From Eledone cirrhosa (taxonomy: Eukaryota), in NCBI GenBank assembly GCA_964016885.1, contig OZ024758.1, forward strand, positions 12,772,001 through 12,836,000: a stretch of 64,000 nucleotides of DNA. The letters are read 5' to 3'. A model generated the notes under the pieces. It was given only the letters and a program-made list of their open reading frames with translations. It was not told the origin of the DNA and made no database searches. Position 1 is the stretch's first letter, and each line of letters begins with the position of its first letter. The position numbers and the translations under genes were made by a program. Of this stretch, positions 30,379-30,576 are shown piece after piece.

Positions 30379-30576
30379 GGAACGAGTAGGACCCCGATGG
30401 GTGAGCTCAAGCCGTTTCGACGGCTAATTCTGGACTCAGTCCAGAATTAGCCGTCGAAACGGCTTGAGCTCAGCCGTCGGGGTCCTACTCGTTCCTATTA
30501 CCCACTCTACTACCCTAAGTATTGAGTACTTTGGTGCGTTATGGTCCACCTGGTTCCTTACCACATTTCCTTCGTT
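30379..30576 (+). mobile_element. Family B foldback cassette
   Basis: (TA)n-GGAACGAGTAGGACCCC...CTGGACT c AGTCCAG...GAAACGGCTTGAGCTCAGCCGTC GGGGTCC...TTCCTTCGT-(TA)n. Confidence 0.85.

Follow-up and report, generated by a model that had tools for sequence, protein, structure and literature searches.

Our analysis traces the cassettes which we call family B to an autonomous Penelope-like element (PLE), of whose pseudo-LTR they are pieces, and favors, with a probability of roughly two in three, the view that these stubs are run-off cDNAs joined head to head, copied from the capped 5' end of the PLE mRNA and primed on opposite strands of a (TA)n run. Transcription would start at A(-41), in the upstream pseudo-LTR and inside stem II of its hammerhead ribozyme. 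The PLE protein would nick both strands of the TA run and prime copying at positions +20 and +97 of the leader, near the mRNA 5' end; the template would run out after about 61 or 138 nt, and both cDNAs would run off the cap. One RNA would usually be copied twice, once per priming site, and microhomology, A-tailing or short templated patches would join the two cDNA 3' ends. A half-ribozyme unable to cut itself would stand at the mRNA 5' end, the missing 5' half reflecting the transcription start, while transcripts reading through into the next pseudo-LTR would include the motif in full and long insertions would need such read-through RNA.

Half-hammerhead cassettes and their parent element

The window, by which we mean the whole stretch of 64,000 nucleotides analysed (contig C19, positions 12,772,001-12,836,000, of the Eledone cirrhosa assembly G000), belongs to a microsatellite-rich host genome of 3.0 Gb, and arm positions are numbered relative to the predicted cleavage site at window 30478/30479. 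The seven cassettes of the original prediction are real, with GAAAC, stem III, GUC and the G-rich segment in place in 7/7. The catalytic 5' half is missing as had been claimed: CTGANGA and the parent 5' core are absent from both strands of the window copies, with a type I hammerhead 5' core box in 0/7. All seven have (TA)n on their flanks. A 31-mer from family B has 23,002 exact matches genome-wide compared to 0 for the reversed control, so the cassettes are not a product of chance.

In the copy at 30379, a short inverted arm on the minus strand (30379..30436) runs from +20, the first priming site, back to A(-41), directly 5' of which the junction consists of one base, at 30437, that reads G on the minus strand. 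The parent has T or C at this place, and we infer that the G was either copied from the mRNA cap or added without a template. The long arm (30438..30575, plus strand) has A(-41) as its first base, reaches the second priming site (+97) with its last and is followed by (TA)n. It opens with the 3' strand of stem II (30438..30455, plus), starting at the A of an initiator-like motif, and this A at 30438 is probably the transcription start. Next comes the hammerhead 3' half (30456..30483, plus), which holds GAAA (30456-30459) and stem III with its palindromic loop (30460-30476); the last base of the GUC triplet is 30478, and the 3' strand of stem I begins at 30479. A 77-nt tail between both priming sites (30499..30575, plus) is found on one arm only.

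The palindromes at 43715..43917, 53529..53719 and 55303..55493 also pair a short minus-strand arm with a long plus-strand arm, the first with a G before the A(-41) of its long arm and the second belonging to a second subfamily, and 49652..49810 is a lone plus-strand arm that runs on to +97 past a TA run and a short duplication at +20. It had been stated that all copies end or invert in the same short region, which holds for most of them but not for those at 21150 and 48103. The former (21150..21430) is of the rare long+long type and holds, at its junction, a repeated insert that was templated locally; the latter (48103..48286) has a long minus-strand arm ending at -28 and a short plus-strand arm that goes further, to -40. 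Across the window cassettes the plus-strand arms end at -38 to -45 and the minus-strand arms at -15, -41, -43, -28, -36 and -36. An eighth arm, diverged and of a third subfamily (55521..55568, minus strand), was missing from the earlier list.

The window also holds a SINE-like repeat with a tRNA-like head (2081-2195, 5478-5659, 6056-6244 and 25563-25667) and a second SINE-like repeat in nine copies (9463, 9781, 17516, 34418, 43074, 46310, 48690, 48915 and 59271). A non-repetitive ORF at 12475-13152 (plus strand) ends near a possible splice donor and contains a FSIAAIL motif, which we take to resemble the eh1 repressor motif. Judged by its sequence the ORF may be exon 1 of a transcription factor gene, in whose introns the cassettes would then lie; a Pfam search of it gave no real match.

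The expectation that the half-hammerheads have a parent was borne out by pseudo-LTR repeats that carry the whole motif around an ORF for an RT and a putative endonuclease. Family B is retrotransposed and is not a TIR DNA transposon, again as expected, the same sequence flanking the RT ORF and not a transposase. The specific form predicted for the parent, with CWGANGA directly before the inverted arm, was wrong, as its 8 genome matches are all mutated inverted arms. A search for CTGANGA 8-38 nt from the core gave 42 matches, and the 30 inspected, none with a stem I partner, were all junction or chimera products. Shared upstream sequence beyond the breakpoint, read by eye in 14/30 fetched loci, supplies the stem I partner, UUGANAA and a long stem II. 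The full-length parent (loci L089/L090, contig C1, 11.229-11.232 Mb) has two pseudo-LTRs at a distance of 3,118 bp, a further, inverted copy upstream, and between the pseudo-LTRs an ORF of 719 aa that starts 190 nt past the predicted cleavage site; pseudo-LTRs, the inverted upstream copy and a tail at one end were found here and at L091, L092 and L093. Other non-LTR RT/endonuclease ORFs lie on both sides of the full-length PLE (L089 217-4175, L090 6695-9764). Among the C1 loci of the first 11 Mb long copies are frequent (14/30), and round the C19 window they are rare (at most 7/132 arms), so the density of stubs and of long copies differs by region.

The parent protein has a telomerase-like RT, as indicated by a structure model (pLDDT 93) whose top two Foldseek matches are telomerase RTs (E 4e-8 and 5e-8) and by a conserved YRDD motif, along with a Cys linker and a YIG-type motif. 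Linker residues C572, C574, C580 and C586 are conserved among 115 homologues, as are Y593, Y606, G608, R617, H621, C670, C673, E676, C698 and H700, which we take to be a candidate GIY-YIG endonuclease with a CCHH motif. Atlas neighbours of the protein carry RVT_1 or GIY-YIG, the latter on part of them. A GIY-YIG structure was absent among the fold matches listed, a Pfam search of the protein returned 0 matches, and a PDB sequence search of the ORF returned nothing useful. By its Cys linker and (TA)n targets the parent would be a Neptune-like PLE under the criterion given in the available text of PMC8557442. Clade names are absent from the 120 homologues listed.

The cassette segment is indeed the 3' half of a type I hammerhead motif, and the whole motif is present in long copies. 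A hammerhead 5' core does exist upstream in the parent, but it reads UUGANAA (U3:A8) and not the predicted CUGANGA, and thereby escapes CUGANGA searches. The parent has what defines a type I hammerhead, namely three stems around the core boxes, a 3:8 pair and a GUH site; its stem III is 4 bp with a palindromic loop, and its stem II region is long, as had been foreseen, spanning about 55 nt. A relaxed pattern search of the genome found 5,863 copies with the whole family B motif, and the first 100 of them listed, classed by eye, comprise 75 U3:A8, 23 C3-A8, 1 G3-A8, 1 U3-G8 and 0 C3:G8 cores. Across 24 long copies 91% of cells are paired, and stem II shows three compensatory pairs, at least two of which come from one diverged copy. 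The minimum-energy fold is a three-way junction in 2/5 folded copies, the other three lacking it. No hammerhead was among the best 150 of 418 Rfam matches in the window, and an Rfam scan of the parent gave no hammerhead match. Copies with the C3-A8 mismatch (for example at C1 18,769,215 and 52,160,654) form a subfamily that multiplied regardless of the mismatch, which is expected to weaken cleavage, and cleavage may therefore be dispensable.

Priming sites, arm ends and the extra G

In 664 kb of unselected sequence the 3' ends of the arms are bimodal, falling at +20 in 31/86 and at +97 in 33/86, and TA follows both sites in the parent. We classified 113 palindromes, drawn from unselected and selected loci, as 94 long+short, 2 long+long and 0 short+short, with 17 unclassified, so that 94/96 classified pairs have one arm from each site. 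At the predicted cleavage site we found 0/86 arm ends by BLAST and at most 1/93 by pattern, which indicates that cut RNA is not the usual template. The anole PLE studied in vitro shows internal RT initiation at two sites with extension of both target strands (PMC11167929, available text), and the +20 and +97 starts match the pair of internal starts on either side of the PLE tail in that report. The same text describes no strand preference for either start site in vitro, which leaves the long+short rule unaccounted for by that result.

The other ends of the arms are concentrated as well. In a sample of 1,064 kb, 88/132 arms end at -35 to -45 and 7 go beyond, with the mode at A(-41); 109 of these arms lie in the surroundings of the window, and long arms may look shorter than they are because extension was gap-free. 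A(-41) is the A of a T/C-A-G-T motif, which by our assumption fits the initiator consensus. An A/T-rich box lies -29 to -31 from A(-41) in 5/6 reference copies and is missing from the single long copy of the third subfamily, while the sequence at +28..+33 is, as we take it, unlike the DPE consensus. The spacing of about 30 nt from the A/T-rich box upstream, together with the extra G described below, suggests that A(-41) may be a Pol II start inside stem II. Contigs from four sequencing runs showed no peaks of begins or ends, though contigs are unable to reveal starts. Start sites within the pseudo-LTR are known for PLEs, according to the available text of PMC2377424 and PMC8557442.

Among the 23,002 arms matched genome-wide, the base before A(-41) is T in 14,158, G in 4,360, A in 744 and C in 3,740, the C count being obtained by subtraction and including a parent variant. 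One base further out, G makes up only 323 of the 2,548 non-T (non-parental) bases, and none of the first 100 whole copies listed of the 5,863 has a G before A(-41). The local sample agrees in showing a G after 10/15 arms ending at -41 compared to 17/98 ending elsewhere (p 0.0002), or compared to 7/27 ends with the parental T (p 0.02). An extra G at the 5' junctions of L1 insertions is described as a cap signature (PMC11702581, available text). The end in family B is not sharp, as the parental T precedes A(-41) in 62% of the 23,002 arms and 32/132 sampled arms match on to -42..-45; this T may come from parent-length copies, A-tailing or further starts. The partner arm is a possible source of the extra G in about 6/17 listed G cases (by eye), and reverse transcriptases also add C at uncapped ends.

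Competing routes to the palindromes

Ordinary 5' truncation could also produce such stubs, if the RT stalls (or the RNA is cut) at the stem II apex and the arms are still primed separately, in the 3' pseudo-LTR; we consider this unlikely, yet deserving of weight. The breakpoints do lie just 3' of the stem II apical loop, as the original prediction had it: the loop is at -46..-49, and the arm ends, spread over about ten bases, fall in the apical helix, on its 3' strand immediately before the loop. In addition, PLE insertions are normally 5'-truncated and accompanied by an inverted copy, according to the available text of PMC8557442. The apical helix is, however, the weakest (85% paired and A/U-rich), and an RT arriving there would already have passed stronger helices. 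Stalling also leaves the G excess at one position unexplained, and it does not account for the comparable end, with its own G, in family A.

The earlier description of family A breakpoints as variable does not hold, since a cliff is present at which 14/33 non-parent arms end within four bases, with 5 going further. The family A parent has a whole CUGAUGA motif and a short stem II, and in its two long copies a presumed TATA box lies 30 nt before the A at the start of stem I, where the cliff is. The palindrome at 52234..52432, which served as a comparison, has arms ending at or next to this A, 30 nt past the parent's TATA box. Genome-wide, the base before the cliff A is G in 1,697 cases compared to A or T in 368 (parental C uncounted). 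With a position before stem I and 30 nt past the TATA box, the cliff follows promoter geometry and not stem II. The claim that the structure of the ribozyme dictates the truncation is not supported by the same comparison, as the family A cliff is equal in kind and sits elsewhere in its ribozyme. We infer that the family A start is the first base of stem I, so that, in contrast to family B, the complete ribozyme would stand at the 5' end of its mRNA.

Family A stems from another PLE, whose hammerhead motif is complete, with a GUA site and with U-U at the stem II base, and its stubs in the window lie at 6770-6888, 13438-13490, 20869-21099, 38834-38952 and 52234-52432. Its tail and that of family B have a common 10-base motif between the priming sites (window 30520-30529 and, for family A, near 21049), which by sequence is a candidate protein-binding or initiation signal. 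In families D and F the ends are scattered without a cliff, in small samples, family C has too few copies, and the parents of three E subfamilies were not found in the cross-family test.

Snap-back of a single cDNA on the stem II hairpin, which would then self-prime so that the second arm copies the first, was the mechanism proposed originally and now appears very unlikely. It expects the parent loop to be retained and the second arm never to reach beyond the first. The long stem II, the ends near its apex and the 35/94 long+short pairs in which the long arm goes further all suit it, but the parent apical loop is kept in only 1/113 junctions, the short arm goes further in 25/94 pairs and reaches -41 while the long arm does not in 23/94, and the G is found on long and short arms equally often (16:16). 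In 3 of the 17 pairs with both arms at -41, the window copy at 30379 among them, only 1-2 bases stand between the arms, too few for a loop. Later deletions at the palindrome centre could hide some snap-back products. The two arms are of a common subfamily in 89/113 pairs compared to 18.6 when shuffled, which is in keeping with snap-back and also with gene conversion, and which indicates that one RNA or one source usually supplies both arms. Some arms nevertheless have as partner the inverted end of a different PLE family or an ORF fragment, contrary to self-priming, and such chimeric head-to-head insertions (L002, L009, L010, L016, L019, L026, L055, L004 and L005) imply that two different RNAs can serve one insertion.

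The two remaining explanations are both highly improbable. If the palindromes were a non-autonomous master element (or a MITE-like DNA transposon) copied in its entirety, they would have the terminal inverted repeats, TA flanks and high copy number seen here, but there are 101 different junctions among 113 pairs, so most palindromes arose anew, the two arms of a palindrome are not equal, an RT ORF and not a transposase lies next to the sequence, and with neither a transposase parent nor a fixed internal sequence this is refuted as the main route. Stubs copied from spliced RNA, with the AG at -41/-40 as splice acceptor, would fit the pyrimidine run followed by AG at the cliff and the 5' UTR introns described for other PLEs (PMC2377424 and PMC8557442, available text), but the copies retain the AG and the 74 truncated arms tallied have no common upstream exon sequence.

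Relation to known elements and wider meaning

What was known before includes the class of element, its U3:A8 core and the inverted arrangement. The parent resembles EN+ PLEs of the Neptune/Nematis type, as presented in the available text of PMC8557442, in having a single ORF with a telomerase-like RT followed by a putative C-terminal endonuclease, and in its Cys linker, pseudo-LTRs, inverted 5' copy, one-end tail, (TA)n targets and pseudo-LTR hammerhead. The tail is 30-40 nt in those elements compared to 77 nt in family B, and palindromic stubs that lack an ORF, end at a fixed place and carry an extra G are not described in that text, which treats the formation of PLE inverted structures as an open question. 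In the literature searched we found no description of run-off leader stubs in PLEs, nor of the fixed end, the extra G, the long+short rule or a promoter inside stem II.

Poseidon PAc of Anolis carolinensis (PMC11167929, available text) is similar in its two internal RT starts bounding a tail, in the extension of both strands and in the lack of ends at the cleavage site (at most 1/93 arms in family B); ribozyme cleavage is not needed for PAc and may not be for family B. It differs in that the same start sites are used on both strands in vitro, whereas 94/96 family B pairs combine one of each, and in that its ORF starts inside stem II and not 190 nt past the cleavage site. The Cercyon PLEs of Schistosoma (PMC4209133, available text) show the same U3-A8 covariation in a pseudo-LTR hammerhead, missed by C3-G8 descriptors, and dual motifs on opposite strands. 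Their hammerheads are minimal and without stem III, unlike family B with its 4-bp stem III and its stem II region of about 55 nt, which, on the evidence of its sequence, would hold the promoter.

L1 twin priming, in the available text of PMC11702581, likewise has a second RT that primes at the opposite end of the target, and an additional G is seen where full-length insertions have their 5' junctions, but its arms represent adjacent, barely overlapping parts of the RNA, while both family B arms cover the same 61 nt. Non-LTR retrozymes (10.64898/2026.07.22.740005, available text) are also short non-coding PLE derivatives with type I hammerhead sequence; they form head-to-tail tandems with a whole ribozyme per unit, in contrast to the head-to-head halves of family B, and the cassettes are thus not retrozymes.

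In 1,064 kb and the fetched loci we observed 162 TA-flanked palindromic segments of at least 10 families, many with hammerhead boxes and unequal arms, and the pattern looks genome-wide; those in the window include 14245-14501, 55942-56083 and 62320-62674. More tentatively, the promoter-proximal stub might be the commonest PLE product, with tens of thousands of stubs mapping the start of each family and a split ribozyme acting as a switch between mRNA and template. The half-ribozyme mRNA would be protected from self-cleavage, and it would be cleavable by a 5' half supplied from the far pseudo-LTR or from another transcript.

Returning to run-off copying from the capped mRNA end, family B provides countable in vivo rules: one long-primed and one short-primed cDNA would enter each insertion, and both could reach the RNA 5' end independently and carry the extra G. 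These rules would extend the in vitro result in the available text of PMC11167929 and predict an asymmetric complex of two RTs. Such stubs can be misfiled as MITEs or hairpin RNAs, and here they belong to a very large hammerhead family that was missed by the Rfam scan and by CUGANGA patterns. The ends of the stubs would offer a way to read the promoters of PLEs from genome sequence.
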